NCBI GenBank assembly: GCA_030704615.1
Contig: CM060731.1
Span: 51,770,001-51,834,000 of the forward strand
DNA from: Takakia lepidozioides
Taxonomy: Eukaryota > Plantae > Bryophyta
Direction of reading: 5' to 3'
DNA: 64,000 bases
Positions 11,551 through 48,600 of the stretch are shown piece by piece. The notes under the pieces were generated by a model that was given only the letters and a program-made list of their open reading frames with translations, was not told the origin of the DNA and did no database searches. The position numbers and the translations under genes are program-made. How positions within the stretch are numbered: the first letter of the stretch is position 1; the number at the start of each line of letters is the position of its first letter.

Positions 11551-13670
11551 TTCCTTACAAACAAATTATTTTTGTATTTTTCATTTATTTACTTGATATT
11601 CAACTGACAGACTGACAGTGAGCCGGGGCCAGGCTGGACGGTTTTCTTTTTTATATATTTCTTTTCTTCCCGGTAAAATATAATTGTATTTCTTTAATGA
11701 GAGGAAACTTCGTCACCGACAAGAATGCACGCCATACTAGAATTTCAGCTATTCATTCATCGGGATGAATGACAATCATCCGGTAGAGGTTGTATCCGGG
11801 CCCCGGCGTCGCTTGGCTTCTGACCTTCATCCAAATGGGGTAGGTAGGAACGATAGAGTAGGGTGTAGGTGGTAAGTAGGTTGGGTAGGCTACAATCAAA
11901 TTGTAGGTGGGGCGGTTGTAGCTGTACCCTACCTGCCTACCTACATACCTTCCTGCTGCCCGATCGTCTCTACCGGGTGATCTAGCCACCTGACCAAGTT
12001 ATGCGACAGGACGGTAGCAAGCGTTATCCGAAACCGGTGCAGGCGGTAGTGGTGACTGGCTACCGGATGCTTGTTTCCAGACAGGTCGGTTCTTTAGGGT
12101 TTGCATGTTGCAGGAGAGGCATCCTGCCGTCTCTCGCTGTCCCTCCTGCTGAATCCCTGCTTTGAGAAGACCTTCCAGGAAATCAAGTGTTGCCATCTCT
12201 CCGAAGTAGAATGTTCATGTCCACATCCAACCTGCGGTCATATAGATTATATTGTAAATTTAACTCGCATACTCATACTACAAGATCATTTGTCATTGAT
12301 GTAATCACACATGGATTGCAAGGAAAATTGAATGGCCCCCGGACATTGGTGTAGGTTTTATCCCCACCAGAATCTAAGATGTAATATTAGTCTTGTTCCT
12401 ACCTTAGACATTTGGTACGTCTTTCACTCGACAACGAGTCCTCAATGAGTCCCCCAAGAGAGATAAAGAGATGAAAAGAGATGAGCATCACAACATACAG
12501 TACATACACAACAGGGAGGGTGCAGATACATGGGTGTATGAATGTATAGAAAGCAAAATCAGCCTGTGCTTCTTGATGGTGGGAGAGTGGAAATTGCATT
12601 AGCAAGGCATGATTCACAAGGTGGCTTTTCTCCCTTAAGATAACATCTTTTCTTTCTAGGTTCAGAGCAGTAAGCAGATCTCCCACTAGATTATGTATAA
12701 CCTGCTTTCCCTTTCAAAGAGGAAGGGAAAACTTCTTGGACGAGACAGCCATGTAGATATTACTCTCTGAACTCACATGAGGCCCAGGGAATGCAATCTC
12801 ACTCATCTCCCTGTTTTTGCCCTTCATGGAATGAGAATTAATCATGTTGACTACACTGGCATGCAACAGACTGTGAAGAGAAGGGTGATGCACCGACTCA
12901 TCATTGTTCAGAGCTTTCATATAGCTGGTATGTTAACATACATGCCTTAAGGAATAGAACTTTCTAATGTCACAACCTACAAGCACCCTTGCGATTCGTA
13001 TAAGCCCCTTGTTGCCATGGACAGTGAGGTAGACTTGTTTGTCCAGTACAGGCCATCTAAGTGCGAAATCCTTGCTGTTATTTGCGTGTCAGGAAGGCCC
13101 CCCTCACCCTACCCGGAAGTTTGCAGGCACATTACTCATAAGAAAGTAGCCACCATTTGTTTAAGTTACTATGTAACCAATTTTACACCTCCAAGAATCA
13201 GAGCTACAAAAGGGAAGAGACAATTCGAGTGAAAGATAGACAATGGAAGGTGGAGTGTGGAAGAGTAATTTAGGTCTAGGGAATGTGGGAGACAAAGAAT
13301 TTGAGTTGACATTGTGTGCGAGAAAACTGGTCATAAAACCTCTTGGCCATGACTCGGCGGCAAGGAATGGAATGTCTTTTAAGTCTATCCTCCTCTCTCC
13401 TCTACAGCCCCACCCCCAATCAGAAGAGGCCATAGGTGCTCAGATTTACTCCTGTATGCAATTGCCTTCTACCTTCAGCAGTTTCCTTCAAGTTCCCTAA
13501 AAGTAAGTAGGGCCAGGATCAGCCGATAAATCTCAAATTCAGGACACACTCGAGATGCTTTTGCCCCACGTGAAACGAGAACGAAGTCCAGCATATCATC
13601 AACATCGAACAGAGGTGAAACTAAGTGGTATTTGGGATGTAATCATGCAAACTAGTATTCAACTCAAGAC

Positions 13671-15263: not shown

Positions 15264-18200
15264 CTATGAGGATATCAGGCATTGATCCAAGTGGGAGTTG
15301 AGCTCTGCATTGGACATACCCTTAGGAAGCACCTTCTGGCACCCAGGGCAGCGCTGCTCGTCTGCATGCCAATCCCCCATAAAATCAGGTTAGTGATATG
15401 CTTTGTGCCAGAGATTCCCCCTGAATGAAACATTTTTATCCCTCCTGTACTCTTATCTTATTCACCAACATTGAAAATCTCGAGGCTGAGCCTAAAGCCC
15501 TGGCCCGAACTAATGTTTTGTCCCACTACTGGGAGTGAGCCCCTCACAAAGGTAGTGTCTGTTCTGCCCAAACTGGGCGCGGGATCTGTGGCCACAAGGC
15601 TACAACAAACGATATGAGTACATTCTTATCTCCGTGTACTCTTTTCCTCAGCTAAGGCAGCACGCCACTACCACAAGTCAAATCTGTGCTTAGCAGTGAG
15701 GAACACGACACCAATGACCACCTTATATCATTCATTCAATCCCGTGTGGGATTGTCACTGGCTGTACCTGAGCATCAGTGACATCAAGCTAAATTTGACC
15801 CTGATGGCCTTCTGCATGGCCTGCGAGTTTGTCTGGAACACAAGTTCACTCACTCGCCAACAATCTTGGCAGAAACACCACAAGAAAGATCGCTCTTCAA
15901 GTAGGCCAGTGTTGAACTCAAGTGAGTAGATGAACATTGTTTTTGTGTTTGTGGCAACCACGTCATGTGTTGATATACTTGTACACAGAACACGAATATT
16001 ATAGAGGAACAAGCACCAAAACCTTGTCAAACATGTCAGCTTGGAACGTCATCATAAGCAGTTTCTTCAATGCCATACCTTGGCTTGATCCACCACCGCT
16101 CTCTTCAGGGCTATCATCCAGCTTGGCCAAAGGCCCACGGACCTCCTCCCCACTGTCATGCCCTGCAATTGCCTTTCCCCTTCGCAATCGCCTTCTGTAT
16201 GTTATGACCTTCTTCGTTTCCCCTTCTTTCCCAGACCCAGAACTTCCTTGTTGTGGTGCCACGCTTTCCACTGTCCCTCCTTCCAGATTTCCATCCACAC
16301 TCTGGGGCATTTCTTCTGGCCCAAAGCACTGGCTAATTCCACTCCCATATCTCCCACCCATACACACACTGCTATTTCCAGCTCCGCTGGTGGTTCCAGC
16401 TCCGCCATCTCCATCAGAAATGGCATGGCCATCAAATATGTGATCCCTCTGCTGTGAAGTGAGCGCCCGCCGCTCAATACTACACCTGTTGCTGTCTTCT
16501 TCCTCATCACTTAGCTCAATCACTTTCTGTTTACCCCTTCTGTCTACACCATCATTGGCCCCCCACCCTGTGTTTTCACCCTGCTCTTCAGAGACTTGGT
16601 CTCCAATATTAGATGGACCTACAGTCTCACCTGACTGGCACCACTCCTTTCGACTGCTGTCGTCAAACAGTCCACTTGTTGATCAGTCAAATGCATAAAT
16701 GACAGTCTCTTTCAGTAGATTTTAGGGCCAATGCTAATTCCAAAAAGATGACAAAGACAGTTTCGGAAAGAATAACAACATGCAGGGCCATGAAAGTGGT
16801 CACAGTTTCAGCTTGTTTCATCAGTCTTCTGAGAAGCCAGAATCAATGGGTAAACGAGGCATGAAATTCAGTAAGTTCATACCTGTCGCAGCTTGGCAAG
16901 CCAATGTGGATCAGATGTTGGCTTTCAATCAAGTTGCTGGGGCCTTTAGTTGCACCTTCATCATTCACTACAACCTTGGTAGCCAAACCACCTACAGTTA
17001 CAGGCCTCCCGTGTTCATTCCAATCCTGTTCTTCATCATCCAAATTGATGACTGATTTGTGTGTGCAACAAGATGCTCCCCCATGGAAACTTTTCTGTTT
17101 GTCTTCCTTGTCAGCCCCTGCCTCTGTGCAGATGTTTGTGCGAGTTGATTGAGTGAATGACTCATCTGACACTCTAACAGCCTCCTCTGGATTCCCTGCA
17201 ATGCCATCAGCCACTGGGTCTACAACCATGCTTTTCTCCTCAAGTGCTGAAGAATTTGTCAGATCTGCCTGTTGATCAACTGACACAAGCACCGGCGTGC
17301 TGCTAATCCAGGATTGAACCCCCAAAACATCATCATGTCTGTTGGAATCCTGTGAGACATTGCCAAGGTGTTTGCGCCCTGCCACCACAGTGTATGAACC
17401 CCTATCTACTGCAAGAGTTCCATCTTCAGCAGTGCCGCTGCCATGAGTACCAGTTGCATGCTGACTGTCTCCCACTTTGCTCTCTCCACTTCCAAATTCT
17501 ATGTCACTTTCACAAACGACCTCTCTACCAAGAGATTCTCCCAGCAAGCTGCCGTTGTCTGCACCCTCCAAGCCTGCATCTCCCTGCAGCCCCACCGTCT
17601 GGCTCTCAACAAAGGCTGTACCCAAGGCAAACACTCCTGCTTGCACACCTGTCTTGTCAATTTGTGAGATGCAGCTTGCCATGTCAGGGTCAGTGGATAC
17701 TTCAGCAGTCTCTACTACGCAGCGGTTTTTCACCGACTCTTCCAGCTCTTTATCTGCATGTATCAATCTTCCATCAACCGTGTCCTTGCCACTTTTGCCA
17801 GCTGCATCTGGTGTAAGAATCCAATCATCCAATGAAAATTAGAGTATGTCAAAAGCATGCTATAAGACCAGACCAAATGATCCCATTGGGACATGGAGAT
17901 CATTGTTCGCTCAACTAACATTAATAGTAAGGTGAATGTTTCACACGCAACATTACCTATCTGGTGGACTTAGTACATGACGGCAAAGGAGGAAAAGTCA
18001 GAACATTCAAGTTGTGTGTCTATCCCCTTGTTTATTTTAATTAGGAAGTACCTCTGCGGATGGGCTATGCAAGGAGTACCAAGCAACTTTCAATAGCGCA
18101 CTGACATAAGTTGAACTCCTGCCCGTAAGTTTTCAATATGCCAACACTTTGGGGTAGCTCTCATAATCCCTGCACTAGATGGATATAGGTTCTCAACGGA

Positions 18201-21200
18201 TGTCCACCGAGAATTCTAAACAAGATCTGGAAAAACTTATTGAACTGAACATACCGCAGTTAGACCAGGAACCTTGCAAGGAATGCGATCCGAGCGAGCA
18301 CAGCAAACTTTGGGGCCACTAACCTTTGACATTATGGGTCAAGCTACGAAAACAAGAGAAGCATCAGGTTTTCAAGTATCTTTACCTGCATCCGCTCTCT
18401 CACTCTCTCTCCCTATCAGCTCCCCTTGCCTCTCCAGTCTCCGGCGCTCATCCCTTTTGTTAATCAAGGACACCATCCCTTCTTCACCTTCCTCGCCTTC
18501 AGACGTATACCACCCTTTCCATGCAAGAATCACTGTTGGCTCCCTGGCTTGCTTCCCACACCCCTGTACCTCCTCTGGCCTCCGTCGTTTTCTACAACCA
18601 CCTTCACTTGCCTGCGGCTTGACCACGGGCTCAACTGTTCGAGTTTCTTGCTGATACTGGTTTCTTGGCCTCAAAGTCCGCTTTCTATTCAAACTAATCT
18701 CCGTATTGTCTTCGCAGTGATTTTGAATTGAAGGACCAGCAGCTTTAATGGCTTCCTCTTCTTCTAGGCCATTGCTCTCCACTACCATGCTTTTCCCAGC
18801 TTCATTATCTAGGGGCATAACATTCTCATTCTCAGAACCTTTATCCACTGCGACCAAAAACTTATCCAAATTGGAAGTTTGGATTGGCCCACCAGAAGAA
18901 TTTACTGTCCCTCTCTTAGCTATGCCGCCAGTGGCATGGAGGGATGGACGCTTCTTGCCAACAACTGTACGTGCACCTCCCAAGGCTAGGAGTGCAGTGT
19001 CTTCCACGTCTTCTTCACAACACAAGTAATATGACTTTTAGAAATGTGCTTCGATGCTTTGCTTCTCCCTTGCATAGGTTGGCTAGTGCCAAGGCTTAAA
19101 AGGGAGGTTAACTGCTGTTTGTACAATCTCTTTGGCCATAAATCCTTCCACACAGTAAACAAAAAGCAGCAACACACTTAGCTTCAGTAATAGAGCAACA
19201 TACCAGAGTTTTTAGGACGCACTTTTCGCCGATCCACATACCCTACAGGTTCAGCAGTCTTCTTATAGACTCCTCCACATTTGAGTTCATGACTGCAAAA
19301 GCCATCAACAGAAATTTCACTTCCATGGTTTTGAGTAGTCAAGAATCAAGATGTCATAATAAACTTTGCAGATTATTTTCATCACATGCAGCAGGACATG
19401 ATCAACCTCCTAAGTAAGGACCAAGTTTGCCAGCATTTGTGACAGCTCTCAAAGCACCTCCAACCTACTCTGTTTCATCCAATCTAGGCTCAGCCTCCCA
19501 ACAGCAAGCGAAGTCTATTATTTTACATCAGTTCTCTGCGTCTCACCGCCGGCATGCTTCACAAAGTACTGGTGATGTTCGTGGTGTTACTCAATAGAAC
19601 ACCACTGCACCTGTGGTCTGCATATTAATAACTCCGCTTGCCACTCTACGTCACATTTACGTTGAGACTGGCTATAGTGAAGCTCAGTCTCGAGAATGAG
19701 GGCCATTGGCTCTAACTTAAGCTACGGAAATTTTTCACAATGAGGAAAAGCTGCATCAGGAGCAGATTACATGATCTGGCTAAGGAAATATAGATCCGCT
19801 TAGGGACGCAACACATCCAGAATTCAAACAAGATTTAGGCTTCACAAAAATGGCAAACCCTAAACCCTGAATCCTACTTACATACCACAAGCCATAAACA
19901 TTACAGGGCTTGGCACCACCAGATTATGGACTTGCAAGGTAATATCGCATCATGTGCATGCACCACACAGACTACAATATTCATTAATATATTGCAAGAC
20001 ACAATCATGTGAAATATACTATCACAGAGTTGGACTTGTATATCCACCATTGCTAGGCAGAGAGGCACATGCAAACTCAGGAATGACAAAAACCGCAGGG
20101 AATTTCCACCCAATTCAAAAGTTCCCGCAGAAACATTTGCATCCAACCACCATCTAGCACCGTGGTTTGAGTTAAGGAACTGTTGGACCACTTACGTGGA
20201 CTTGGGTTCAATCAAGATGCGGTTAACCTCGGGGTCAATGGGCAAACTAGTCATCTACAATCTACATACACAGGATGCTCGGAGGATGGTCAGCCCCTTG
20301 TGTTGTCAAGACCTACAGGGAGACCATGCATGCCAGTGGCAGGATATGCAAGCAAGGATGACCCAAAGAAAACCCAAACACAATGACGGTGCCCCCACAT
20401 TCTCAAACAGACTGTATCCTAGCCCAGTGGTTAGGGGGTTCCAGAACCACCCAAGAGTGGCTTAACAAAACGCTCGAGCCAATCATCTTCTTGCATCCAA
20501 GAAATGACATCACTGAGAAGTCTACAATGGTTGAACAACATTGTACTGCCATGATCTGACGCCCAACGTTATTCGTAATCTAGGATTTTTTTTCTGTACA
20601 ACATACCATAGAAGAAAATGAAGAGGTGCAAACAAGAAGAGAGACATTCAAGTGCAGTGGGTCACACATGTGCCAGTGGCAGTTTGGTGCGGAGCAGGAC
20701 TGGCCACCAGGTCCACCCCTAGGACAGTCAGACGATGATGGTACCCGATTATTTGCTCTCATCACAAGATCTCCACAGTTTTCACACTGCCCAGAAATAC
20801 ACCAATTTCAAGGAATTAGACTTTTCGGCAAGAGACTGATACATATGGAACTTACCCCACTTTTCATTCAATCTTCTCAATACAAAGGAATAACAGATCT
20901 AGACATACTACTCATACCGTCCACTGATGGCCACGGTACATCTCCACCTCATCCTTGAAATTGTGACAAATGCTGATCCTGTACCCATTCGCAGGCCGCT
21001 GCACAGAAGACAACAATAATTCCAAATGGAAAATTCTCTCAAACATTGATTTCATTGAACAAACTTGTAAATGTCAGGTCTGGTACAATGAGGACAACAA
21101 AACCACAGCCTCTCACATGACATTCAACTATCCAGCATCGCCACTGATGTCATGTCATAGTCCAAGAACAACAGATATACTCGGATACAATCACAAGTTG

Positions 21201-25800: not shown

Positions 25801-26282
25801 ATTGGTCTAGTAGCAAATAACTTTATCAATTCACGAATGGTCCCTCTCAACCCTGAAGCCACTTCCGGAGCAAACCAGTCAAGTCGAAACTGCACCTCCA
25901 AAGTATCACAAATGAGTAACATTGATAATATGGTATGTATAGTGGCCGTAGATTGTACTCTTACGTGTTTTTTGAAGTTTACAAATGCAACATCATGAAC
26001 AGTCTGCATGTACAGCTGAAAATGGTTGAAAGGATCAAAGACTTACCACCTCACCAATATTTGTGGATGTCAAGCTTATGGGCACATCTTCCACAAATAT
26101 TTCAATGTAGTACAGGAATAAACGTCCACAGTCAAATCCATTTTCTTGCTGAGGAACTTTTACTCTGATTGTAATAGCATCTTTGGGTGAAGTGTTGTGA
26201 GCATCATGACACTTGTAGTTGGATGCTTCCCACTCAGCAATAAAGATCTTACAAGAGACAACATGGTCAAATCAGAATGTGG

Positions 26283-26470
26283 TGTCGTGCGCATACATAT
26301 CGCTACACAACTACATTGTTGTCCAAAACCACACAACACATGTGCACACCACACACTAGTATACCACTAGTCCACCACTAGTCCAGCCACTAGTCCAATC
26401 ACTAGGCTACAACTAGTCAGTCACTAGGCTGCCACTATGCTGCCCACTATGGCAGTCACTAGTCCACACA
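26283..26470 (-). repeat. Terminal repeat block Y, outer copy (188 bp)
   Basis: Near-identical to 26801-26976 apart from one extra 12-bp CCACTAGT-type unit and a few substitutions; TG...CA bounded. Confidence 0.92.
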
Positions 26471-26471
26471 A

Positions 26472-26798
26472 TGATAAAGAGGAAGAATACAAGCACAAGT
26501 TCATGCGAGCTCACAAAGCTGAAGCATAAACTCATGCATATATAACCTCATCACTCAAATACAAGTCAAGCCAAGTGCACCCCACGCCATGGGGAATCCA
26601 CACTACGGCGCCATAGCTAGGCGCGGTGAGGCTCAACTCGAGAAAGATGAGCCTCCCGCGCTTGCCGTGAAGATAACCACTCTAGGACCTAAATCTGTCT
26701 TGATCCCTGGATTGACACTTGGGCCAATCCCAAATGTCAATATGTAAAAGCTAGCTATTTCATAGCTAGTTTCACACTAGTGGTAAAATAACTTGACA
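26472..26798 (-). repeat. Terminal repeat block X, 3' copy (327 bp)
   Basis: Matches 36912-37237 with about 14 substitutions and one 1-bp indel (manual count); TG...CA bounded. Confidence 0.93.
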
Positions 26799-26800
26799 GC

Positions 26801-26976
26801 TGTCGTGCGCATACATATCGCTACACAACTACATCGCTGTCCAAAACCACACAACACATGTGCACACCACACACTAGTATACCACTAGTCCACCACTAGT
26901 CCAACCACTAGGCTACAACTAGTCAGTCACTAGGCTGTCACTATGCTGCCCACTATGGCAGTCACTAGTCCACACA
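26801..26976 (-). repeat. Terminal repeat block Y, inner copy (176 bp), abutting the PPT
   Basis: Direct repeat of 26283-26470, joined to X through GACA-GC-TGTC. Confidence 0.92.
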
Positions 26977-26987
26977 ATCGCCCCCCT
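26977..26987 (-). other. Polypurine tract (plus-strand primer)
   Basis: Minus strand AGGGGGGCGAT immediately precedes the TGTGTGG start of block Y. Confidence 0.8.
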
Positions 26988-27236
26988 AGCTAGTGCTTAG
27001 GTCTCTCTAAGTTCAGGTAGCCACAAGATGTGATAGTTACCATAGTCTCACTAAGTCCTCCACCACTATCCCTACTACACTCAAACTCGATAGATCAAGA
27101 GGCCGGGTGCAAGAGTTGCCCCATCGTTAGTCGCCGTCTTGCAACCTGTGAACTTAAGCCTGGGATCTCGTGTATTGACTCCTATGAGCTTGGCCTCCCA
27201 TGTCTTGTTAGCTGCCTCTAGTCATGTCCACTGCCA

Positions 27237-27380
27237 CTATCCCAAGCAGTGTGGACATAACCAATCTCCATCAGGAACCCTCTCAAGATGTGGTGTCAAG
27301 CATCCCACATGCCAACCTCTTGAGCATCGATCACACACCAGCATGGTGGCTGCCCCTTTGGCAGACCCACAAAGCATGCA
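27237..27380 (-). pseudogene. PHD finger at the C-terminus of the retroelement integrase
   Basis: CMLC-x11-CDRC-x4-HVGC-x14-CPHC (C4HC3) with the conserved W (DWLC), in frame with the integrase tail FSPGDYVYL. Confidence 0.9.
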
Positions 27381-28565
27381 CCTCAAACCTGCAGGTACCA
27401 CTGCCAAGTTTGGGTCAACTCTACCATCGACATTGGGAAGGTGACATGGTGCACAATTACGCACATGGTCTTTCCAAGTCATGCCATCCCGACCCTCCAA
27501 GATTAGGACTCCTAAGGGCAACACCTCTCGAACCCTCAGAATAACACGCCCTGCAGTAACATCCAGGGTCGTATGAGCAGTCTGCTGCAAATAAACATAG
27601 TCACCAGGGCTAAACCTCCGAACCCCAAGACGATATCCTCCACCACGTATAGTGGCATACCTCAACGTATCACGGTGCTCTGTAATGGCAAGGTTCTCAA
27701 AAGCCATGGGCATGACTTTCTTGAACAACTCTGCACGCTGACCACATGCACGTACTCATACGTCCGGATCGTCAAGGTTAAGGACTTGAGCAGTGTCCCT
27801 ACAAATGGCTGCAGGCAAATCCGGCTCTCGGCCAAAGAGAAGGAAATATGGTGAGAAGGAGGCAAATGATGCTTGTTTGCTGAACCTGTAGCCCATGGCT
27901 AACCAAGGCACCTGGAGATCCCAATCTCCTAGGTGTCCTTTCTGCAAACCATACTTGCGCAAACCCCTCTTCACCGTCTGAACAACTCTCTCTGCCAAGC
28001 CATCGGCCTCAGGATGATCCCGAGAAGTGGTGCGGTGGTCTATCAAGGCTTTATCACAAAGCCTGAAACTCCCCCAAGAACTCTCTCCCTTGGTCCGTGA
28101 GTACCTCAGCTGGAGCACCGAATCGGCTAAGCACACGATCCAAGAATGCATACGCAGCCCCCTCACTAGCTTGTCAGCAATGGAACCAACTCAGCACTTG
28201 GAGAAGTGCTCCACCATCGCCAACACATATCTGTGGTGGCGCATAGTCAGTGGCAACGGTCCTGCAAAGTCAAGACTCCACCTGTAGCCCAACCCCATGA
28301 TTGGTAAATGATGCAACTGTGGTGTAGGGGCGTTGAATGAAGCACGCACCCTGTCACACACCATGCACCTAGCCACGAACTGTTGCACCTCTGTATGCAT
28401 TCCACGCCACCAATACTGCCCCTGTAGTAAACTGTGAGTGCGTCGCACTCCAAAATGCCCCAACTCCTCATGGGCATGCCGCCCTAACCGTGCACGCTGT
28501 GTGGGGTGAGGCACAATCCTCACCCGACCATCCTCCCATACTCGGAGCAGGTGTATCCCCCCCAC
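27381..28565 (-). pseudogene. DDE integrase (frameshifted)
   Basis: HHCC (HEELGHFG...CMVC), D in SLDFAGP, D in VLTDQGREF (alternate frame ~28090-28105), E in GLAERVVQ, SPYFLLFGREP. Confidence 0.92.
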
Positions 28566-28853
28566 TTGAACCTCTTGGCTCGTTGCAGGATCCGATCCCT
28601 CTCCTTGGCAGTCATAGTGGCTACTGTGTCTCCAATGCGGAGGTAGTCCAACACAGCCGAATCCTCATGTATATCTCTGGTACCACCTGGCTCATCACTA
28701 GCCTCAGGGTCCTCTCAACACTCCGTCTACAGTCATCCCTGTTGTAGGTCCAATCTGACCTCCCGATGCCAAGATACATAAAAAGGCAGATGCATGCCAT
28801 CCCGACACCATCTCCTTGTCCGTCTCACCATGCCACCGAGCTCCAGTGTCATC

Positions 28854-30323
28854 CTATTGGCTCGTGCATGGATTGCGACTCAATCCATCCGCATCCCGAT
28901 TGACCCAACCCGGTCGATGCACAACCTGAAAGTCATACTCCTGGATTATGAGTGCCCACCGTGCAAGCTTCCCCGTAAGCTTGTTTGACTCCATCAACCA
29001 CTTGAGTGGCTGGTGATCCATGACAAGGGTGAAGAGATTGCCGTATAGATAGCACCTGAAATGTGTCACGGCCCACACCACAGCTAAGCACTCTCCCTCA
29101 TATGAGCTGTACTTAGCCTCTGCAGCGTTATTCGAGCGGCTAACATAAGCCACTACGAACTCTCTTCCCTCATCATCCACCTGAGTGAGCACCGCTCCAA
29201 GCCCCAGCATGCTCAAATCCGTATGCAGCTGAAAGGGACGCCCCCTGATAGGTCGTCTCAGGATAGGCGCCGAGGTCAACTTTGCCTTGAGCTCTTGAAA
29301 AGCTCGTTCCTGCTCATCTTCCCACTGCCACTCCAAGTCCACCTTGAGCCTTTGCAATGGCACTAAATCCCTTGACAAACCGTCTATAATAGTTTGTCAA
29401 TCCCATGAAAGCTCGAACTCGGCTCACATCTGTGGGGCATGGAATTTGTGCAATGGCCTCTACCTTAGTTTGCTGTACCCCCAATCCTCCAGGATATATC
29501 ATGTGACCCAGATACTCAATCTGGTTGTGGAAAAACTTACACTTCCCCGGATGCAACTTCAATCCGTGCGCTCAATACCACCTGAAGGTGTCTCTCATGC
29601 TCCTATCGTAGCACAAAGATGATGATGTCATCTATGTAGCACCGAGCAAAGTCCACCCCTGCTAGAATCCTATCCATGACTCTCTGAAACTCTGCAGGAG
29701 CGTTCTTAAGCCCAAATGGTAAGAACCGCCACTGATATAGGCAATCCTTGCCGTGCTCATTGATCCCCCAGAATGTCGTCTTCTGCTTGTCCGCCTCCTT
29801 GATGGCAACTGGTGATATCCAGATCGTAAATCCAAAGTGCTAAAGACCTTAGCATGCCCGATGGCATCAAAGATCTCCTCTGGTGTTGGCATGGCATACT
29901 TATCGGACTTGGTCTGACGATTTACAGGCCGTAATCACCGCACATACGTCTCTCCGTCCAATTGCCATAGACATCCTTCTTGGCTGGCATCACTGTGGCT
30001 GAAGCATACTCTCCACCAGAGAGCTCCACCAAACCTGCCTCCCAGAGATCTTGAGTCCTCATCTGAATCAAAGACCTCTCCATGTCATTGTATCTATAGG
30101 GTCTCCGAAAGATTGGCGTGTCAGTGGCCAACTCAATACGAATCTCTTGACCCTTCAGTGCTCCCAAGTCCTTCAAACTGAAGGCAAAACAATTCTTGTA
30201 AGCCCTCAGGAACCGCCGTATACATCGTCTTTCTCCTCCGGTGACAATGGGTCCAATGTCAGGCTCCCAATTGTCCTCCGTAACTGCAACCTTAAGTTCA
30301 GTGGGCTTAGAGGTAGAGGACAC
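28854..30323 (-). pseudogene. Reverse transcriptase and RNase H (frameshifted)
   Basis: RMCGDY, FSTLDLRSGYHQ, FARCYIDDIIIF (~29620-29650), KCKF...YLGH, then RNase H motifs LHTD, YSSYEGECLAVVWA, DHQPL, DADGLSR. Confidence 0.95.
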
Positions 30324-30629
30324 GTCCAGTGGTTGCTATGTTGCAACCTCTTGAGCAGTACTCCTGCCTGCTCAGTCAATGACAAGGCCTCATCTGCCCC
30401 ATCATCTCATCCTGAGGACTTCCTCAACCCGAGAAGAAAAATCCCCAACCTCATCCATCACAGCCGCCTTTCTGCCAACTCCCTCTGAACCTCGAGCTTC
30501 CTCGTGTGCCATGGATGCACCCCGTGGTCCTCTCATGCTCGCCCCCACTCACTGCTTGTACCGTCTCGGTAGGCAAAGAGACCATTGAGGGAAGTGTATT
30601 CCGCACTCTGCGTTGCTCAGCCATAGCCA

Positions 30630-31570
30630 AGCTGATAATCCAGGTCAAGCAATTGAGATCCATTGCTTGCCCCAACACTTGACGACGTGATGCCTCAGAA
30701 AGAGACGCACGCCGTGGTACCAGTGGTAAAACCATTGCCCGCTCACGCTCGTCAGCATTAGGCTCCACTAACTGTTGCAACTGAGCATCCCACAGGAGGC
30801 CAGGTCCACTATCCCGGAAAGCATGCGATCCTGGGAAGCTGAGCAGTGTAGGTAATGCTGCTCGTGGTTGACCACCTTGTTGACCACTGCCAAAGGCGAA
30901 CGGTCATTGTGTCTCACACGCTGAGACTGCCTCCCTGTGTCCAAAATGCTATCCAGGTGTGCTGGCCGCTGCACCCCATCAAATGCACGCTTGAGCAGTG
31001 CGGGTGGCATCAAGTTAGTCCACCATAGCCGTGGACGATGAGCCCGTGACCCCACTGTAGCTGCATCTAGCAACACTGCTGACCCAAGCCACGACCGGAC
31101 TTGATGCACACTGGCCATCACCCTGGCCCGAGAATCGCCCATCAGTGGCACATTCTCCAAGATGTATGCTGGAGATACAGCTTGATGAAGCTGCAAGTGG
31201 CGCAAAACCCGCACCATCTCCCAAAACAGACCGACCTTGAGTCTCGCAATCCATTGCCATGCCCGGCTGATGAATGCCCTTGGCAGGGCCAACCTGCCAC
31301 TACCAAATCAATGGAGCCAACCCGCTCCAAATCCTGCGCCCCAAACGAAATGTCTGCTGGCAAGGCCTGCTGATATCCACGAATTGCAGACATCGGCAAC
31401 AACTCAGGGTACTGCTGCACCAACTGAGCAACATGGCGAAGTGAAATGCGTCGTGCAGTCTCATCCCTCTCCACATACAAGTAACGCCGAACTCGTAAAC
31501 CTGCCTGTAACACAACAGCCAATCCGGTGCTGATCCCGCCAAACAAGTCCAGAAGACAAATGCCTTCATC
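30630..31570 (-). pseudogene. C5-cytosine DNA methyltransferase catalytic domain (DNMT3-like motif layout) inside pol
   Basis: Motif I LLDLFGG (~31535-31555), motif II YVERD, motif IV DLVVAGWPCQG (~31278-31310), LFWEMVRVL, motif VI ILENV (~31150), motif VIII AHRPRLWWTN (~31013-31042), motif IX ERERAM, motif X RRQVLGQAMD (~30660). Spread over three frames. Confidence 0.9.
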
Positions 31571-31959
31571 CGATACTGCCACACAATAGGTGTGGTGTCC
31601 AATGGAGACAACTGAGGTGGTCCTGGTGCAATCCCCACACTCTCCTCCTCTCCTGACGGTACAAAAGCCTCCACCCAGGCTTGTTGCACGTCGATCAGCA
31701 ACCCGCTGCAAATCCTTGCTCGTGCCCCACAATGGAGTCTGAGCAACCATGGCAGGCAACTCCGCCATACCATACATGTCATCCTGCTCTCCCGGAGGTG
31801 GCATCCTCTGAATGAGCATTGCCCTCAAGCAACTCTCTAGGCCAACTCACTGCCGCTGTGAATGCTGCTAGTGTCGGCATCTTGCCTCGCTGGGCAACCG
31901 CAACTCCTCCTATGAACGTCACAGGAGCTGCACACGCCCTCCCCTGACTGCCATGCAGG

Positions 31960-32290
31960 CCTATAGGAAGCTGAATCCTCCCAAAAATCCAGGGTGAAGC
32001 CCATGGGGTACAACACTGCCCCAACCAGGACATCGTATGAGACCGCGTCTGTCACAATGGCCTTGGCTCGCATCACTGAGCCATCTGTAGGGTGATCCGG
32101 CCGTAGTCTGATAGCCAACTCACGCCCGTGTCATGCCCCGAGCCTGCTCCGATCCTCCCAGAGACGTCTGTATCTAAAAAGGACAAGGCTCCATATCCGC
32201 CTCCGTGAGGCCCAAGCCTGCAATAGCAGCTCTGCCCAGCATCAATGGTTGAGCTCCGAGTCCAACAAGACCGCAGTGGCCGTACCTCTT
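31960..32290 (-). pseudogene. Retroviral-type aspartic protease (frameshifted)
   Basis: AVLLDS(G)AQPLMLG can be restored with a 1-nt insertion at ~32256; YDVLVG closes the domain at ~32030. Confidence 0.7.
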
Positions 32291-32899
32291 GCCTGCGGTC
32301 CACTCAAACAGAAAATGTCATCCTGGTTGTCTAACATGACAACTCCAGGTGTCACCATGGCGCGCTCAATGGCTGGCCTAGCTGGCAGCTCCATCAACCT
32401 GGCAGCTGCAGCTTGCCATGGCGCCGCCGTGGCAGTCTTGACCCTCAAATCCGAGGATCCCTCCGGCACTACACCTCCCACTATCTCCGCAGAAGATGAA
32501 GTAACCTCCCCTCTCACAGAGTGTAGCTGCCAGCCTGAACACCTCAGCTGGTCTTACCCCCGGCGTCGCAATCATGGTAGCCGAGAACAATGGAGCCTGC
32601 ACACAGATGTGGCCGCTCCCAGCAGCACACTAGCTGCCGTAGCCTTGGCAACACTAGGTAGTGGTGCTACCCGTGTAGCTCTCCCCAATGCATAGTAACC
32701 TCCGCCTCGGTAACAGTCGGGCGAGAGAACTAGGTGCCATGGATGGCGTCGACACTGTCTCCGCCAATGTGAATGACTGAGGAAGCCTAGCCTGACGGCT
32801 TGCCTCCCACGCGTGAATCCAACTCCACCTGCACCTCGTGGCTCAGGAACTCGTGTTGCTCCTCGAGTCACGGCTGCAGCAGACTCCACCTGCACTAGT

Positions 32900-34453
32900 G
32901 GTAGTGCTGCTCCCACACATGAATCCCATGCCTCCCATATCTCCTCCCTCAGGAGCAGGAGGTGGACCATCCGGCCTTAGAGCCGGTACCACCTGAGCTG
33001 TAGCCATGGCAGCGAGCCTCTGCTCTAGATGCTGAAGCCGGTTGGCCATGCCTTGGTCAACACCCTGACCTCCGCGTCCTTGGCCATGTTGAGCTTGCCC
33101 TTGGCCTACACCCCGTGCCTGGCCACCTCGTCCTCTTTGGGCTGCTCCCCTCGCCCCCGGCCACCATTGTTCCCTTGGAACTGGCCTGGGCGCAACTCGG
33201 GATGCAAACCATAACACTGGGCCTCTCCATGACCGTGCTTGCCACAATGCCCACACTGCAACTGTGCAGGCTGTGCATGTGCCGGCCCTTTGCCTCCCTC
33301 TGGACAATCCTTCTTGACGTGGGGTCCTCCACATGTCCAACACACCACATCCGCCCGTTGTTGGCCTGCAAATGAAGGGAGAGACCCCTGCATCTGAGGT
33401 CCTCTCTGCCCTTCCCTGAGCTTCACCTGAGCCCCCTTGTTGCCTTGAGCACGTTGAGGTAGTGGTTGGCTAGGAGCACCACTACCCCGTGGTGTCTCCT
33501 TAGCGAATCCCACCATGACCACTCGTTCCTCCACCATGTTGAGCTCTATCCGCTCTGCCAGCAAAAACACATTTGCTAAGGTAGGTTGGGCCGCTTGTAG
33601 GAGAGTTACATCCCGCACCCTTCTCCTCAGCTCCTTGTCCAATATCCCATACCAGAATTGGACTGCCTGAGCTTCCGTACCCCCTTGGGTTACATTTATC
33701 AAGCGCCTCATACGAGTGAAAGCCTCCCTCAAGCTCTCAGTCGGCTTCCGTTGGAACTCTTGCAAGCTCTGCAACTTCTCTGTCCTCACCCCTTGATAGT
33801 TCCCTCTTAACTCTTCAAAGAACTCCACAACAGGGTTGAAGGCAGGCACCGCCGCTGGTGCTGGTGCAGCAGTAGCTTGGGTGGACGTTGTAGCTACGGT
33901 ATCACCAGTCCCACTAGTCCCACTGCTGCTTGCTGAAGCTGCCGGTGCAGCGGCAGGTGTAGCCACTGCCCTCGTGGCTCTAGTGCCCTAGTGATGGAGA
34001 CATAGTCGGGTGACCAGTACATCCTCCACTCCTCGATCTCAACCTCATGCCCCCGCCTGAACTCATGGTAATCATCCATAGGCAACCCCTCAAGGTGCTG
34101 AAACAGCCCCTTCCATGCCATGAAAGGCGTAAATAGTTGTGGATTGCGCATTTGCTACAAACACACCAACTATCAAACTCTTGGATAAAATCATCCAACT
34201 CGATGGTGCCCACTTCCCCAGAGTACCTTTGTGGCCCCTTGGTAGCTCCATAGATCTCCTCCATTGTGTCCCACAACAATGGCAAAGAAACAACTTGCAC
34301 CGCCGGTGTGAGTCCTCCTGATTCACAATCCGAATCAGAACCTTCCGTAGAAGACACAAGAGGTGAAGGTGGCCTAAACCGCACACCTCGTCTCGTGTAC
34401 CCACTAGTACTGCTAGTGCTCGAACCGGCACTGTCCCCAGCAACTAGTGGCAC
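32900..34453 (-). pseudogene. Gag with two zinc-knuckle-like motifs (frameshifted)
   Basis: YSGEVGTIELDDFIQEFDSW, FQRKPTESLREAFTRM, CWTCGGPHVKKDC and CGHCGKHGHGEAQC. Confidence 0.85.
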
Positions 34454-35204
34454 CTCCGTGTTGACAAACTGTCACTCAATCGGTCATGAACATGTCCCTA
34501 ACCCCCTCTCCACAAGGTAACTGGGTAGAGAACCTGTTGCGGCTTATGGTTTGGAATATTAGGTTCCTAACACAGCCTACACCTGCACCTGCATCCACCG
34601 CAAACACTCCTATGGTTCGCTGGTCATCACCTCCAACCTCACCATAGGAGAAACAATGATGGTCTGACTGGTCATCACCCCAGCCTCACCATCGACAGCA
34701 TGCTCTAGGACTGGCCGGTGATCAAATCCAGACCAATCACCTATAAAAACAAGCGTCCACACAAAACTAATATGGCGCACAGTCAAGCATGCAGGTATGG
34801 AGGGGATCCAAATACAAGAAATCAGAACGACAACTCCCCCATACCAAAACAACTCCACGGTGTTGTTCCTGCAAGGATACCCCAGCCCAAACCTGGACTG
34901 ATTCTTGCCTCCACCTACGGAAAGGTCTTGGCCTAATAATAGGGTGGAAAACTACGAGGAAGATAAGCTAAAGCAATGCCTAACCCCAACATGCCCTCAT
35001 CCCAACACTCTTTTTCTCCTCTCTTTCCTCACTTGCATGACCATGGAAATATCATGAAGATACTCCTCAAACCGCCCTCCACGAGCTTCAAAATTTGGCC
35101 TTCAAGACATGCTAGTCCTTAGGCAGTCCACCAGTGCCTCCACGAGTCAGCACAGGCCGTCCACAGATCAACACGGGCCACCACAGACCAGCACAAGCCC
35201 ACAC

Positions 35205-35470
35205 ACATCACTGGTCACAGCCGTCACAGCCCGTCACAGCCCCAAAAGCCACAGGTCACAGCTTGTCACAACCCCTCACAGCCCTACACAGGTCACAGGG
35301 GTCACAACCCCAAAGGCCACAACCTATCACAGCCCGTCACAGCCCTACACAGGTCAGAGGGGTCACAGTTCCACAGGCCATAGGGCACAGCCTGTCACAG
35401 CCCCTCACAGCCCCTCACAGCCCCACAGGCTATAGGGCACAACCTGTCACAGCCCCTCACAGCCCCATCC
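35205..35470 (+). repeat. TCACAGCC-type minisatellite in the retroelement 5' leader
   Basis: Many GTCACAGCC/CCTCACAGCC units read directly. Confidence 0.85.
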
Positions 35471-36895
35471 GTGGCCACTCATGGCAGTTTAGCCATTTCT
35501 CCAAGGGGTTTAGCCACGCCAAGCTAGGGTTTGTGTCTCTTGGACTCTAGGCTTCTTTGCACCAAGCTATGGCGGCTGTGAGAATCAGCAAGGTATTCTT
35601 GCTCTTTCGGCTCCCACACACCACCAATAGTAGCCCTAAGCCATGAGGAAGATGGTTGCCACAAACCAAGCCTTCTTTCTCACTTAGACTCCCCAAACAC
35701 GCCACTAAACTCAATGGCAAACAACCAAGCCTTGCTGGTTTCCAGCCCTTGTGAGCACTCATTCAAGTGTTTTCCTTGGCCATAACATCTGTTTTAGAGC
35801 CTATTCCAGCCCCTACATCTGCCACTTCAAGAGCCATGCTCTATCTAGGCTTGAGGTTGAAACCCCAACTAAGAACACGCTCTACAAGTGTCGGACTGTC
35901 ACATAAGAGCAGATCAGCCCCTTACCTTCTCTTCTAGTTCTCTAAAGCTTGAAAACAAAAGCCCAATGGACTGAAGGCATGCTCCACATATGCCCCACTC
36001 TCACCACAAGAGAATCAGCCCCTTTGCTTCTTTTCTTGCACCCACCAACCTGAAAATACAAGCCTTCAACAGGCTGAAAACATGCTCCACCCATGCATTG
36101 CCCTCACATAAGGGAAGTCAGCCCTTCCTTCTTCCTTGCTTGCCCTCCAAGCTTGAAGATGGAAGCTTCAATGAGCTGAATACATGCTCCACACATGCAA
36201 CCTCTTCACACAAGAGGTATCAGCCCTATCTTGGCTCCTTGGCTCATTGATGCTCTCTAAGACAAGACTAAGCACTCCACAACCTTTGCCAAGCTCCTGA
36301 AAACCTAAGGCTTACATTTCCAGCCACAAGGCACTCCTCTTGTGGTGCAAGTGCTCTTCTTCCAAGCTCTGAAACCCTAGGTGCACATTCCATTGTTTTG
36401 CCGCACCTCTTAGCTCCTTTTCCAGCCCTGCTCTTGCTATGACAAGAGCCCTCTCAATGCTGAAGCTCGAGATTGAAACCCAAACTCAACATACTCCACA
36501 AAGTGCACTGATTTGCCCCAAGCCAAATCAGCCCTTTCGTTTGGTCTTGCAATCCTTCACACAATGAAAGCTCGCATTCCCAAGGCTAGTTCTCAGATTT
36601 GCCACCAAAGCCACTATAACGTGCTCTTGACTGGTCCTCTTCCCAATCGTGCTTGCTCATGCATGCACACAATCTGAAACCATCAAGGTGCTCTGGAATT
36701 ACCTGCAGCATGGTGCTTTCATCTCTGAAGCTGAAGATCGAATGCCAAGGTCTACCACCTCGTAACCCACATCGCCTCCGCTTCTAACAACCAAGAGCTC
36801 CATGGTGCTCCTTGCATAACAACCTAGTTTCTCTTATTCTCAAGCAAAAACCACAAGTGCTACAACTAACTCGTATCTGGCACTCACAGATACGA

Positions 36896-36911
36896 GCTCA
36901 TCTTTCTCGAG
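36896..36911 (-). other. Primer-binding-site position occupied by a 16-nt complement of the terminal repeat (putative self-priming site)
   Basis: 36896-36911 GCTCATCTTTCTCGAG is the exact reverse complement of 37077-37092 CTCGAGAAAGATGAGC. No TGG tRNA-type PBS. Confidence 0.75.
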
Positions 36912-37237
36912 TGATAAAGATGAAGAATACAAGCACAATCTCATGCGAGCTCACAAAGCTGAAGCATAAACTCATGCATATATAACCTCATCACTCAAAT
37001 ACAAGTCAAGCCAAGTGCACCCCACGCCATGGGCAATCCACACTACGGCGCCATAGCTAGGTGCGGTGAGGCTCAACTCGAGAAAGATGAGCCTCTTGCG
37101 CTTGCCGTGAAGATAACCACTCCAGGGCCTAAATCTGCCTTGACCCCTGGATTGACACTTGGGCCAATCCCAATGTCAATATATAAAAGCTAGCTATTTC
37201 CTAGTTAGTTTCACACTAGTGGTAAAATAACTTGACA
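36912..37237 (-). repeat. Terminal repeat block X, 5' copy (326 bp)
   Basis: Direct repeat of 26472-26798, flanked outside by the GTGG duplication and not by block Y. Confidence 0.93.
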
Positions 37238-38179
37238 GTGGAAACAAAAGTCAATTCCATAACGGACATAGAATTTGACAAGGTATTCAGATTTCCTGAC
37301 CCCTTGAATACATCAAAGATTGGCTTGTTGTCATGCCCGTGCTTGAGTGAATCCAAGTGCAAGATGAATCTTGTCTCCGTAGGTTGAATGATTGCCAAGC
37401 TCCAATGGAAGTTGCCACGAATGGGACAAAAATGTATTGTTTTGAAAATATATCAATGTTTTTCGTCCACTTCCTCAACTTTCCAAAGTTTGACTCATCC
37501 AGCTTGTTTGCTCTTTCATAAAAGAAGTTATTAAAAAAGAGAAATCTTTGTTCACCTTCCACTGTCCCGCTCTAGATGTGCCTGCATGTGCATACCAAAA
37601 GTTTAAAAGAAAAATTCAAAGCTTGATGCAAATGACATGAATAAAAGAAGTTGAATGTCCATACTTGGATGTAGAATTCTATGATGATGTTGTTCAAGAA
37701 AGTGGCAGGATTCAACGTCTGTATGTCAAATATCGTGATCTCCAATGCTTCATCTCACTTAACCAGCCCACCATGTGAGCAACTCTTTGCTTTTGTTGGT
37801 GACCTTGTTATTGTTGAATCTTCATGTGGTCTTCTTATTGTTGAGTCTTGACCTGTCACACAGTGGCCTATAGGTCATCAGTAAGGACCAAAATATTGCA
37901 CGTACATGCTTGGACAACTTCCATCTTGAAGCACATTATAGGAAATAGCTCATGTAGTTTTTTATCAAGCATCACTATTTAGGCTCGTTCAACAACATCC
38001 AAACTATGTAAAGCCAATATGGGGTCTTACCATTTTTCATTTCTGACTCCATTGATGTTCCTTCATTTTTCAACTCCACTGCGGTCTCATGATATAGACC
38101 TTGTTCCAGATTTGTACCACCTTTGTCATCCAAGTTGACAAACACGGTACTGGGGCCAATTTCTTGGTCCATGGCGCAA

Positions 38180-39964: not shown

Positions 39965-41460
39965 GAATTGGCGGTTGATTATTTATTTTAAAAATTAACC
40001 GACCGCCAATTTGTAATAGTGTTTTTTGTAATAGTGTGTATTTGTTTTTCCATTTTTTATTAAATTTTAAACAGCAACCGCCATTTTGGCGGTTGCTTAT
40101 TTTCTTAAAAAAAAAACAATTATGGCGGTCGCTTGATTCTTAAAATTAAGACAAAACGACCCCAAAGTTTCAGTTTTTTTTTATTGTTTTACTTTTATTT
40201 TTTCCTGTTTCTGGGTTAAACTTTTACCAGCGACTGCCAATCTGGCGGTCGCTTTGTTTTCTTTTTTAAAAACACAATTAAGCGACCACCAGATTGGCGG
40301 TCGCTTACTTTCTTTCTTTTTTAAAAGAAGACCCCAAAATTTGTAGGTTTTTTTGTTTTTTTTTGTTTTTCTGTATTTGGGTTAAACTTTTACCAGAGAC
40401 CGCCATTCTGGCAGTCGCTTTATTTTCTTTTCTTAAGGAACTATTAAGCGACCACCTGATTGGCGGTCGCTTAATTTCTTAAAATAAATTAAACCCACCG
40501 CCAATTTTGCAGTAGTTTTCTTTATTGTTTTTTGGGTTAAATTTTAAACAGCGACGGCCATTTTGGCGGTCACTTTATTTTCTTTATGTTTAAAAATAGT
40601 AAACGACTGCCAGATTGGCGGTCGCTTACACATTTAAAATTAAAACAAAACCACCACAGATTTTTCAGTTTTTTGTTAAAGTTTTTTTTTAAATAAAAAA
40701 ATAAAAAACTTTTCGGTGAAACTTTAACCAGCGACCGCCAATCTGGCAGTTGCTTTATATATTGCTTTTAAAGAAGTATTAAGCGACCACCAGATTGGCG
40801 GTCGCTTAATTTTTAAAAATAAAAAATAACGACCGCCAATTTTGCAGTAGTTTGTTTTTCTTTTCTTTTGGGTTAAATTTTAAACAGTTACCGCCATTTT
40901 GGCTGTAACTTTATTTTTTCTTATTTAAAAATATTAAGCAACCGCCAGATTGACGCTCACTTAATTCTTAAAGTTAAAACAAAATGACCACAAAATTTTC
41001 GGTTTTTTTCTTTTTTACTTCCGCCCCCCCCTGTTTCTGGGTTAAACTTTAACCAGCGACCGCCAATCTGGCGGTTGCTTTCTCTTCTTTTTTAAAAGAA
41101 ATATTAAGCGACCACCAGATTGGCGGTCCCTTAACTTTTAGCAATGACCACAAATTTGGCAGTCACTTCAATTGTTTAAATACAAAAAACAGTTGGCAGT
41201 CGCTTCAGTTTTAAATAAAACAAAGCAGCGACCGCCAATTTGGCGGTCGTTTTATTTTCATTTTTCAAGAAAATTAAGCGACCACCAATTTCACGGTCGC
41301 TTTATTTTTATTTTTTAAGAAAATGAAGTGACCACCAATTTGGCGGTCGCTTCATTTAAAAAAATCCCAAAAGAAATAAGCAACCGCCAACATTGGCGGT
41401 CGCTTCATTTTTAAAAAAACCAAAAGAAATAAGCAACCGCCAACATTGGCGGTCGCACAT
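39965..41460. repeat. Array of about 20 or more palindromic GCGACCGCCAA-TTGGCGGTCGC units with A/T-tract spacers
   Basis: Core palindrome seen at e.g. 40230, 40282, 40448, 40730, 40783, 41056, 41228, 41433. Confidence 0.88.
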
Positions 41461-47644: not shown

Positions 47645-48600
47645 TTTCCCCGGCAACGAAGTCAGTTTTTTTTTTTTTTTTTTCTCCAGTCAGTCTTATC
47701 CCTGCAAAGAAGTGATGATCGGCACCGATCATTACTTCCAGTGCTTCAAGATTTTGCAGACCAGCAACGAGGTCAGTTTTTTATTTTATTTTATTTATCG
47801 CAGTCAGTCTTATTCCTATGAAAAAGTGATGATCGGTACCGATCATCATTCACAGTGCTTCAAGATTTTGCAGACGGGCAACAAGGTCAGTTTGTTTTTT
47901 TTAATAAAATTTTTAAATTTTTTTTACCAATTAGTCTGCGAAAAAGTGATGATCGGCACCGATCATCACTTACAGTGCTTCAAGATTTTGCAGACCGGCA
48001 ACGAGGTTTTTTTTTTTTTTTTACCAGTCAGTCTTATTCCTGCGAAGAGTGATGATCGGCACCGATCATCACTTACAATGCTTCAAGATTTTGCAGACCG
48101 GCAACAAAGTTAGTTTTTTTATTTTCTTATTTTTTTCCCAGTTAGTCTTATTCCTGCAAAGAAGTGATGATCGGCACCGATCATCACTTACAGTGCTTCA
48201 AGATTTTGCAGAGTATTTTTCATTTCGGCCAGAAATGCGGTTCACATTGTTTTGCTTTCGTGTTCGAGTCCTGCATCTTTCCCCCATTGCAAAGTTAGTT
48301 GTACATCAAAACATGATCTTAGGGCTGGAAGGAAGTAATGATCGACACCGATCATCACTCAAACTGCTGTGTGCTTTTGCAACGAAATCTTCATTTCGTC
48401 CAGAAATGTGAATTGCATCGTTTTGCTTTCGTATTTCAATCCTATTTTTCCCCGATTGAAACTGAAATCTTCAAGAAAATATGATGATCGGCGGCGATCA
48501 TCACATTTAGACCTTCTTCAGGGTGATACTTGTGAGGTAGTAGAAAGCCCATCAGCAGTCACTCTCTGTAGGGAATGTGATGATCGCCGGCGATCATCAC
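47645..48600. repeat. Tandem ~105-120-bp units, each with the palindrome AGTGATGATCGG-CA-CCGATCATCACT
   Basis: Copies at ~47711, 47825, 47945, 48048, 48163; degenerate copies at ~48334, 48482, 48577; conserved GCTTCAAGATTTTGCAGA and variable T-tract spacers. Confidence 0.9.

Follow-up and report, generated by a model that had tools for sequence, protein, structure and literature searches.

The window analysed here, a 64,000-nucleotide stretch of the Takakia lepidozioides genome (contig CM060731.1), carries on its minus strand a whole retrotransposon copy whose parts follow in the order gag, protease, cytosine methyltransferase (DNMT), reverse transcriptase (RT), RNase H, DDE integrase and PHD finger (Table 1). 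The succession of protease, RT, RNase H and DDE integrase is that of Ty3/Gypsy elements, the RT resembles Ty3/Gypsy RTs (a rice Ty3-gypsy protein matches at 29%), and the TG/CA ends and short target duplication likewise bear out the Gypsy identity proposed in the original prediction made from this DNA. The element has a PHD finger after the integrase and no chromodomain; no tyrosine recombinase family was matched among the ORFs scanned, and an Rfam search returned 0 matches for the element.

Table 1. Parts of the retrotransposon copy, in coordinates of the window
Feature	Position	Strand	Remarks
Whole retrotransposon copy	26283..37237	-	10,955 bp, TG...CA ends, layout A-internal-B-A-B
Target-site duplication, 5' copy	37238..37241	-	CCAC
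Target-site duplication, 3' copy	26279..26282	-	CCAC
Repeat A1	36912..37237	-	TGTCA...TATCA, 326 bp; 95% identity with A2
Predicted self-primer, 17 nt	37076..37092	-	exact complement of primer-binding site
Primer-binding site	36896..36912	-	directly after A1
Short tandem repeats	35214..35466	-	in 2.6-kb leader ahead of gag
gag	33184..34264	-	two zinc-knuckle-type motifs (33342, 33255), frameshifted
Aspartic protease	31990..32320 (limits approximate)	-	broken; VLLDS at 32271
C5 cytosine methyltransferase, DNMT3-like	30625..31570	-	motifs I-X unpermuted, three frames
Conserved in-frame stop	30330..30338	-	readthrough-type context TAG CAA CCA
Reverse transcriptase region	29350..30311	-	frameshifted; MPTPEE 29892, RCYID 29644
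RT connection and RNase H	28857..29396	-	PF17917, E 2e-36
Integrase with stops, H2C2 finger	27400..28510 (limits approximate)	-	PF17921
Integrase D-D-E residues	28277, 28101, 28001	-	
PHD finger, end of ORF2	27245..27380	-	PF00628, E 2.5e-10
Polypurine tract	26979..26987	-	directly before B1
Repeat B1	26801..26976	-	TGTG...CGACA, 176 bp
Internal palindrome GACA-GC-TGTC	26795..26804	.	at B1/A2 join; putative attachment site of the integrase; single copy in window
Repeat A2	26472..26798	-	
Repeat B2	26283..26470	-	CGACA end at target duplication

Both ORFs are interrupted by stops and frameshifts, and the copy is a decayed, dead Ty3/Gypsy element. The frameshifts are more likely real decay than homopolymer errors: only 2 of the 12 places listed touch a run of at least 3, against a background of 21%. 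The A/B repeat pairs differ by a K2P distance of 0.037 over 502 sites, which at usual plant rates corresponds to a few million years. Differences fall on 3 of 26 CG, 4 of 23 CHG and 7 of 186 CHH sites, as would be expected in a methylated, silent copy. The element family is highly repeated. In one DNA run 107,153 of 3,038,600 contigs lie on the element (a figure of contig depth, not copy number), and all 30 element bins are covered by contigs in three of four DNA runs.

Other repeats share the window. A tandem array of 303-bp PPR units, 83-91% alike and in several frames, lies on the minus strand at 53501-55304; it gives the impression that PPR repeats were amplified internally not long ago, or else that a transposon carries a piece of a PPR gene. 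Adjoining it, at 53372-53647, the tandem motif of the element's leader recurs on the opposite strand, with no A or B repeat near it. Three related repeats of 180-290 bp surround the PPR region (50147-50440, 55503-55742 and 57072-57352, one of them inverted) and are possibly the ends of another element. At 58421-61448 (minus), matches to RT and zf-RVT and open stretches of some length mark a non-LTR retrotransposon; at 40039-41456 and 47650-48443 lie MITE- or satellite-like arrays of units of 155-166 bp, which contain inverted motifs, and of 103-114 bp; and several acidic, low-complexity ORFs of 220-330 aa at 16002-19037 (minus) have no Pfam match.

The methyltransferase domain and its conservation

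The original prediction placed C5-methyltransferase motifs in canonical order between protease and RT, and all six were found on the minus strand: LDLFGG at 31552, GWPCQG at 31294, ILENV at 31163, HRPRLW at 31040, ERERAM at 30750 and LGQAMD at 30675, that is, motifs I, IV, VI, VIII, IX and X in this order between 31552 and 30660. The five long motifs gave one match each, 5 in total, across all six frames of the whole window. The protease and RT signatures lie upstream and downstream on the same strand, as predicted. The motifs are spread over three frames, so that the copy is frameshifted, which the prediction had also stated; the frameshifts lie near 31230, near 30875 and just upstream of motif I, and none of the three segments contains a stop. 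A search for PF00145, which the prediction had suggested, succeeded in part: the first segment scores 22.5 bits and so narrowly passes the cut-off of 22 bits, and the other two segments match no Pfam family.

By profile and by fold, the closest solved structure class of the putative methyltransferase is DNMT3. The first segment alone matches DRM2 and DNMT3A in the PDB (E 3e-4 to 6e-4), and a profile built from 16 relatives matches DNMT3A (2e-16) and DNMT3B (3e-14) ahead of DRM (5e-7 to 1e-5) and M.HaeIII/M.HhaI (2e-5 or weaker). A folded model of the relative P0004, which with a mean pLDDT of 58.7 is usable for fold class only, has DNMT3A and DNMT3B as its top matches (E 2e-12). Since some phage methylases score 60-73 bits on the DNMT profile, and DNMT3A itself 63 bits, this assignment describes a DNMT3-like class and does not fix the donor. 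Identity with DRM was rejected, because a circular permutation would be expected there and the window motifs run from I to X.

How far does the domain extend beyond this copy? With the 119-aa middle segment as query, 40 relatives emerged among 395 candidates (best E 8e-48). Named proteins make up 17 of them, 12 from Marchantia, 4 from Calypogeia and 1 from Sphagnum, at 52-78% identity. A metagenome scan yielded 75 loci from 224 matches, colinear with the window element; many represent one family, to which proteins named Sphagnum are related, and in some cases two loci show a single insertion. These loci were retrieved through the DNMT, so that copies lacking it could not appear. The DNMT profile further reached 482 clusters at E 1e-30 or better. 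Spacing between protease and DNMT is in frame in 42 of the 51 metagenome loci of usual distance, and between DNMT and RT in 29 of 44. Among 208 domain sequences found by the profile, near-duplicates included, ungapped rows keep the catalytic Cys in 203 of 204 cases and the Glu of ENV in 204 of 206; for the two arginines of the Arg-x-Arg in motif VIII the counts are 201 of 203 and 201 of 202. Taken at the level of sequence comparison, the predicted methylase is integral to the retrotransposon family.

Rates of substitution bear on this picture as well. The original prediction held that a dN/dS of about 1 across copies would speak against it, and the answer differs with depth: median DNMT values are 0.83 among 97 close pairs, which weakens the claim, 0.65 among 1454 middle pairs and 0.24 among 155 deep pairs, which favours it, the pairs not being independent and the deep ones lying near saturation. 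The RT medians are 0.66, 0.40 and 0.11 for the same classes, and the DNMT of the window gives 0.115 against 47 unsaturated of 59 loci. The pattern is that of active lines under purifying selection, overlaid by dead copies that decay neutrally.

Searches of viral contigs produced no close relative among 9 matches to the land-plant DNMT profile; the algal profile reached no more than remote phage methylases. Two matches in prokaryote genomes are whole retrotransposon contigs that we read as eukaryotic DNA binned there. These two complete DNMT-bearing elements, L155 and L156, sit in two cyanobacterial genome assemblies, most likely as binned eukaryotic DNA, and one of their proteins has entered UniRef under a cyanobacterial name.

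A conserved stop between methyltransferase and reverse transcriptase

On one point the original prediction has to be revised: the methyltransferase does not lie inside pol. In metagenome loci that keep the frame, a stop follows about 80 codons past motif X, and it occupies one site in 53 of 55 loci (38 TAG, 15 TAA), the two loci without it being rearranged. This conserved stop puts the DNMT outside the RT-bearing reading frame, where it closes the Gag-protease ORF, and its constant position defines ORF1 as Gag-PR-DNMT and ORF2 as RT-RH-IN-PHD. No shared stop between gag and protease was seen in the loci. Many database proteins end 78-189 aa past motif X, and a Klebsormidium-like group after 27. 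The arrangement has exceptions elsewhere: several algal members have no stop between DNMT and RT (fused) or carry the DNMT after RNase H.

How might the second ORF be expressed? DNMT and RT share a frame across the stop, so that a single readthrough product is possible. The window context matches CARYYA, a motif that has been described to stimulate readthrough in plant viruses (PMC4132726, PMC2754532), and in the intact L155, which belongs to a third family, two open frames are joined by TAG CAA TCA. The exact motif follows the stop in 4 of the 53 loci; in the main metagenome family the stop is followed by CAA CCC ATG, which agrees with CARYYA at 5 of 6 positions. This sequence and the 15 TAA stops among 53 leave re-initiation or splicing possible instead of readthrough. 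We favour readthrough, and the layout suggests that the methylase is probably made at the level of Gag, and not as part of pol.

Terminal repeats and a proposed life cycle

The ends of the window element read A1, internal region, polypurine tract, B1, GC, A2, T, B2, an arrangement that departs from two matched LTRs, one per end. The counts of ends and joins given below draw on the window together with metagenome loci that stem from different organisms. Among 14 independent 3' ends with flank, seven are B-A-B, six B alone and one aberrant, two further ends cut by contig ends being left aside; at the other side, B upstream of A occurs at none of 20 independent 5' ends (22 rows minus 2 duplicates). 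All seven elements with both ends show a 4-bp target duplication, and none a 5-bp one. All 8 joins of B to A read ACA-NN-T(G/A)TCA, the 2-bp spacer NN being GC in 4, AT in 3 and AC in 1. This spacer is missing at the integrated ends, whose TG/CA termini match the halves of the internal palindrome GACA-GC-TGTC. In L155 and in the chlorophyte-type L156 the palindrome again comes after a polypurine tract and a stretch resembling B; its chance occurrence is about 5e-4 per 500 bp. Repeats in L030, L054 and L056 that were considered as A/B turned out to be AT-rich flank repeats.

Directly behind A1 stand 17 nt that are exactly complementary to a segment within A (fold z -6.2). A self-priming site lies at the expected place in 12 of 19 independent copies (p <=0.02 against shuffles); the moss-type family keeps the pairing with a different sequence in 11 of 18 independent loci, and L155 does so with a third one of 13 nt. 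The primer complement is thus kept in three families despite their different sequences, and no self-primer of at least 11 nt was seen in L156. Tract and primer site together define B-GC-A as one ordinary LTR, from which a molecule [B-A]-internal-[B-A] would be expected.

We therefore set out a life cycle in which the window holds a dead Gypsy-DNMT3 copy of a family likely to package a cDNA-methylating enzyme and likely to integrate from end-joined cDNA opened at the palindrome, and we give this reading as a whole a probability of roughly two in three. Transcription very probably starts inside A1 and the RNA primes itself, as in Tf1-type elements, and we are about equally confident that reverse transcription would yield the ordinary linear [B-A]-internal-[B-A]. 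Most ribosomes would probably stop after Gag-PR-DNMT, with a minority reading through into RT-RH-IN-PHD, so that methylase would outnumber RT and integrase in the particle. It is likely, if somewhat less so, that the integrase would cut the left-repeat palindrome 3' of CA on both strands and that the outer ends would be joined before or after strand transfer, giving A-internal-B-A-B with the 2-bp spacer lost. Finally, we lean slightly towards a methylase that would act on the cDNA or the fresh insertion, such that the copy arrives methylated and the PHD finger reads the target chromatin. Methylating cDNA in the particle or at the insertion is the simplest role that we can predict for the enzyme.

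The integrated form would then be the linear molecule, end-joined and reopened at the left-LTR palindrome, with cuts 3' of CA like those of normal integrase processing. Cleavage of palindromic circle junctions has been described for foamy virus and HIV-1 integrases (PMC1180852, PMC4372172). The A/B join itself looks like end-joined cDNA: in L036 it retains polypurine-tract bases plus an insert, and in the aberrant L050 nine primer-site bases. L050 (12674-13570), a rearranged copy, also carries an internal inversion, a single B at its far end and a proper 4-bp duplication, and resembles an aberrant reverse-transcription or autointegration product. The 3' ends with B alone may be one-LTR circles, later deletions or assembly collapse. 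Random opening of a two-repeat circle predicts A-B-A-internal-B in half of the copies, and its absence among the 20 independent 5' ends means that an extra rule favouring the left site is needed. The left LTR becomes double-stranded first, which might account for the preference; another possibility is that methylation shields the right site.

The main rival, which we consider unlikely, is a rebuilding of the ends in the manner of DIRS elements, whereby an RNA running from A1 to B2 would have its tips copied from the B1-A2 join by template switching, giving linear DNA with no end-joining. Such a process would explain at once why no 5' end carries B, the repeat layout observed is that of DIRS elements as given in a figure legend (PMC5890265, Fig. 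4c), and the A/B joins are precise in 6 of 8 cases. It sits poorly with a tract exactly before B1 and a primer site exactly after A1, which define B-A as an LTR, with the retained tract or primer-site bases of L036 and L050, which are typical of joined cDNA ends, and with the single far-end B and proper duplication of L050. Also in favour of the end-joining reading, private variants are common to B1 and B2 within L066 and within L071; no site separated all B1 from all B2 in the loci compared, and the mean distance between B copies is little different within an element (0.068) and between elements (0.080-0.094).

A somewhat more doubtful variant of the end-joining reading gives the methylase a restriction-modification task, namely marking the CpG beside the palindrome so that the integrase cuts only one site. 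A copy cut at both sites would indeed lose its 3' R region, a CpG directly precedes ACA-GC-TGTC in the window, L155, L156 and L004, all CG-poor elements, and DNMT and palindrome occur together in algal-type and land-plant-type members. Yet plain sequence recognition by the integrase fits equally, timing alone could yield the bias if the left repeat is finished first, and the spacer changes fit ordinary decay at CHG sites, 35.7% of which differ between repeat pairs; a special hypermutation of the spacer was rejected on the same ground.

Less probable again is a domain that has ceased to methylate DNA in the life cycle and instead serves the particle as a structural component or by binding nucleic acid, or that has RNA as its substrate. 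Gag-level amounts would suit a structural part, and the related Klebsormidium domain was inactive in yeast, a result that its authors call inconclusive (PMC5890265). CG depletion was considered as a sign of self-methylation and discarded, as the element (0.47) does not differ from the rest of the window (0.49), which is also what an inactive domain would leave; the intact L155 and L156 do show some CG depletion, which host methylation explains equally. Against this alternative stand the near-invariant Cys, Glu and Arg pair across the 208 sequences and the DIRS-borne DNMT3 domains (SymbioDIRS-Dnmt3) that are reported to methylate CG in yeast (PMC5890265). A one-off host gene capture or an assembly artefact confined to the window copy, suggested by its frameshifts and the marginal Pfam score of one segment, can be dismissed, because the same order and spacing recur in dozens of loci and in named genomes, so that the domain is family-wide, contigs cover the DNMT bins in 4 of 4 DNA runs, and no repeat or insertion boundary of its own was found to flank the domain in the window.

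Returning to end-joined cDNA as the preferred reading, one may envision more tentatively a whole Ty3-like clade, from chlorophyte algae to land plants, whose attachment site lies mid-LTR and which integrates solely from end-joined cDNA, with a capsid-level DNMT3-type enzyme made ahead of a leaky stop methylating the cDNA and possibly shielding the second site; we hold this generalisation to be doubtful. If it were true, integration from a circle precursor, rejected for retroviruses, would come back as the normal route of a natural element. The permuted ends suggest a way of integrating that is absent for LTR retrotransposons from the literature searched and, as LTR-finding programs need matched ends, explain why such programs would miss or mis-trim these elements. 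The conserved stop, for its part, predicts a high dose of the predicted methylase per particle. If our main reading holds, land-plant genomes including that of the liverwort Marchantia contain many transposon-borne predicted de novo methylases, annotated as hypothetical genes, that may confuse counts of host DNMT3 genes, and the question raised in 2018, of what use a methylase of its own is to a transposon, can be put to the test in a plant for which methylation mutants exist.

Relation to known systems

Given these features, the window element is, as judged by protein comparison, a member of the KnitGypsy-Dnmt3 lineage of Klebsormidium. In a tree of RT-RNase H sequences (171 after 24 near-duplicates were dropped, drawn solely from searches with the window element family), a single clade of 146 tips with support 1.0 contains all 85 tips that bear a DNMT, and the 25 tips outside it include none. 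A subclade (0.82) unites the window element with elements of Marchantia, Calypogeia, Klebsormidium, Closterium and a Coleochaete transcriptome entry; the DNMT precedes the RT wherever visible (31 tips), a further 56 tips start at most 246 aa before the RT, and the nearest named relatives of the window element by RT are bryophyte elements. In another group (Scenedesmus, Volvox) the DNMT lies between RNase H and integrase. Within the RT clade, P0295 retains only a weak DNMT remnant, and the chlorophyte-type L156 has an extra 713-aa ORF (10033-12171) between pol and polypurine tract. Outside the clade, three Ty3-like polyproteins (P0311, P0320 and P0326) carry PF05869, which we take to be an adenine methylase family, and two of them also a PHD finger.

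Two neighbouring locus tags of K. nitens, whose contigs are equal in length, correspond to the two ORFs, KFL_013780020 reading knuckle-PR-DNMT and ending 27 aa past motif X, and KFL_013780010 reading RT-RH-IN. The DNMT of the former matches the profile at E 7e-147 and the three window segments at 32-42% identity, and domain order and RT clade are shared with the window element. We infer that these models are copies of the element described as KnitGypsy-Dnmt3 (de Mendoza 2018, PMC5890265), a publication that also bears out the precedent given in the original prediction, DNMT capture by retrotransposons in dinoflagellates and charophyte algae. The window element is hence an extension of range, and not a new capture.

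The published element is similar in its unpermuted DNMT3-like domain, Gypsy domains, DIRS-like repeats and reported purifying selection (PMC5890265). The element described here differs in residing in a land plant and in its very many copies. The DNMT of KnitGypsy-Dnmt3 is described as part of the ORF of the RT (PMC5890265), whereas in the window family the ORF closes after the DNMT, as it does, unlike that description, in the K. nitens gene models. In its accessible text the same paper regards the capture as peculiar to the lineage of K. nitens, and neither a mechanism of integration nor a palindrome, primer or target duplication is described there.

Other systems share single features. SymbioDIRS-Dnmt3 and split-direct-repeat DIRS elements have the repeats A-coding-B-A-B and a DNMT3-type domain and are described as using a tyrosine recombinase (PMC5890265), whereas the window element has a DDE integrase, a protease, TG/CA ends and a 4-bp duplication. 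Tf1/Sushi elements and the plant Tcn1 chromoviruses share the Ty3/Gypsy order and replace a tRNA primer by self-priming, but are reported with matched LTRs and a chromodomain (PMC6317226) where the window element has split repeats, a PHD finger and a DNMT. Foamy virus and HIV-1 likewise have a DDE integrase that is reported to cut a palindromic junction into integrable processed ends, but in these viruses the palindrome arises where one LTR meets the other, and the route is minor or disputed (PMC1180852, PMC4372172). The window family has its palindrome within the LTR, and all copies observed are permuted at this point. Circle junctions of the IS3 family offer a further parallel to cleavage at a palindromic junction.

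EpiLTRs of Cymbomonas and Euglena also combine, within an LTR element, a cytosine methylase and a domain that reads chromatin; their DNMT, described as sister to DNMT4, is placed at the end of pol together with an adenine methylase and a chromodomain, and the authors set it apart from Gypsy-DNMT3 (10.64898/2026.05.21.726589). The openly searchable literature, which takes in PMC12344493, 10.64898/2026.05.21.726589, 10.1101/363937, PMC6317226 and PMC10952607 in their accessible parts and leaves subscription journals mostly uncovered, held no land-plant Gypsy-DNMT3 family, conserved stop or internal attachment site; papers of 2025 and 2026 speak of 'streptophytes', and their trees may include land-plant sequences. 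Thus, the lineage is a known, little-studied one, and what the window adds to it is its host range and two mechanistic leads, the conserved stop and the permuted ends.
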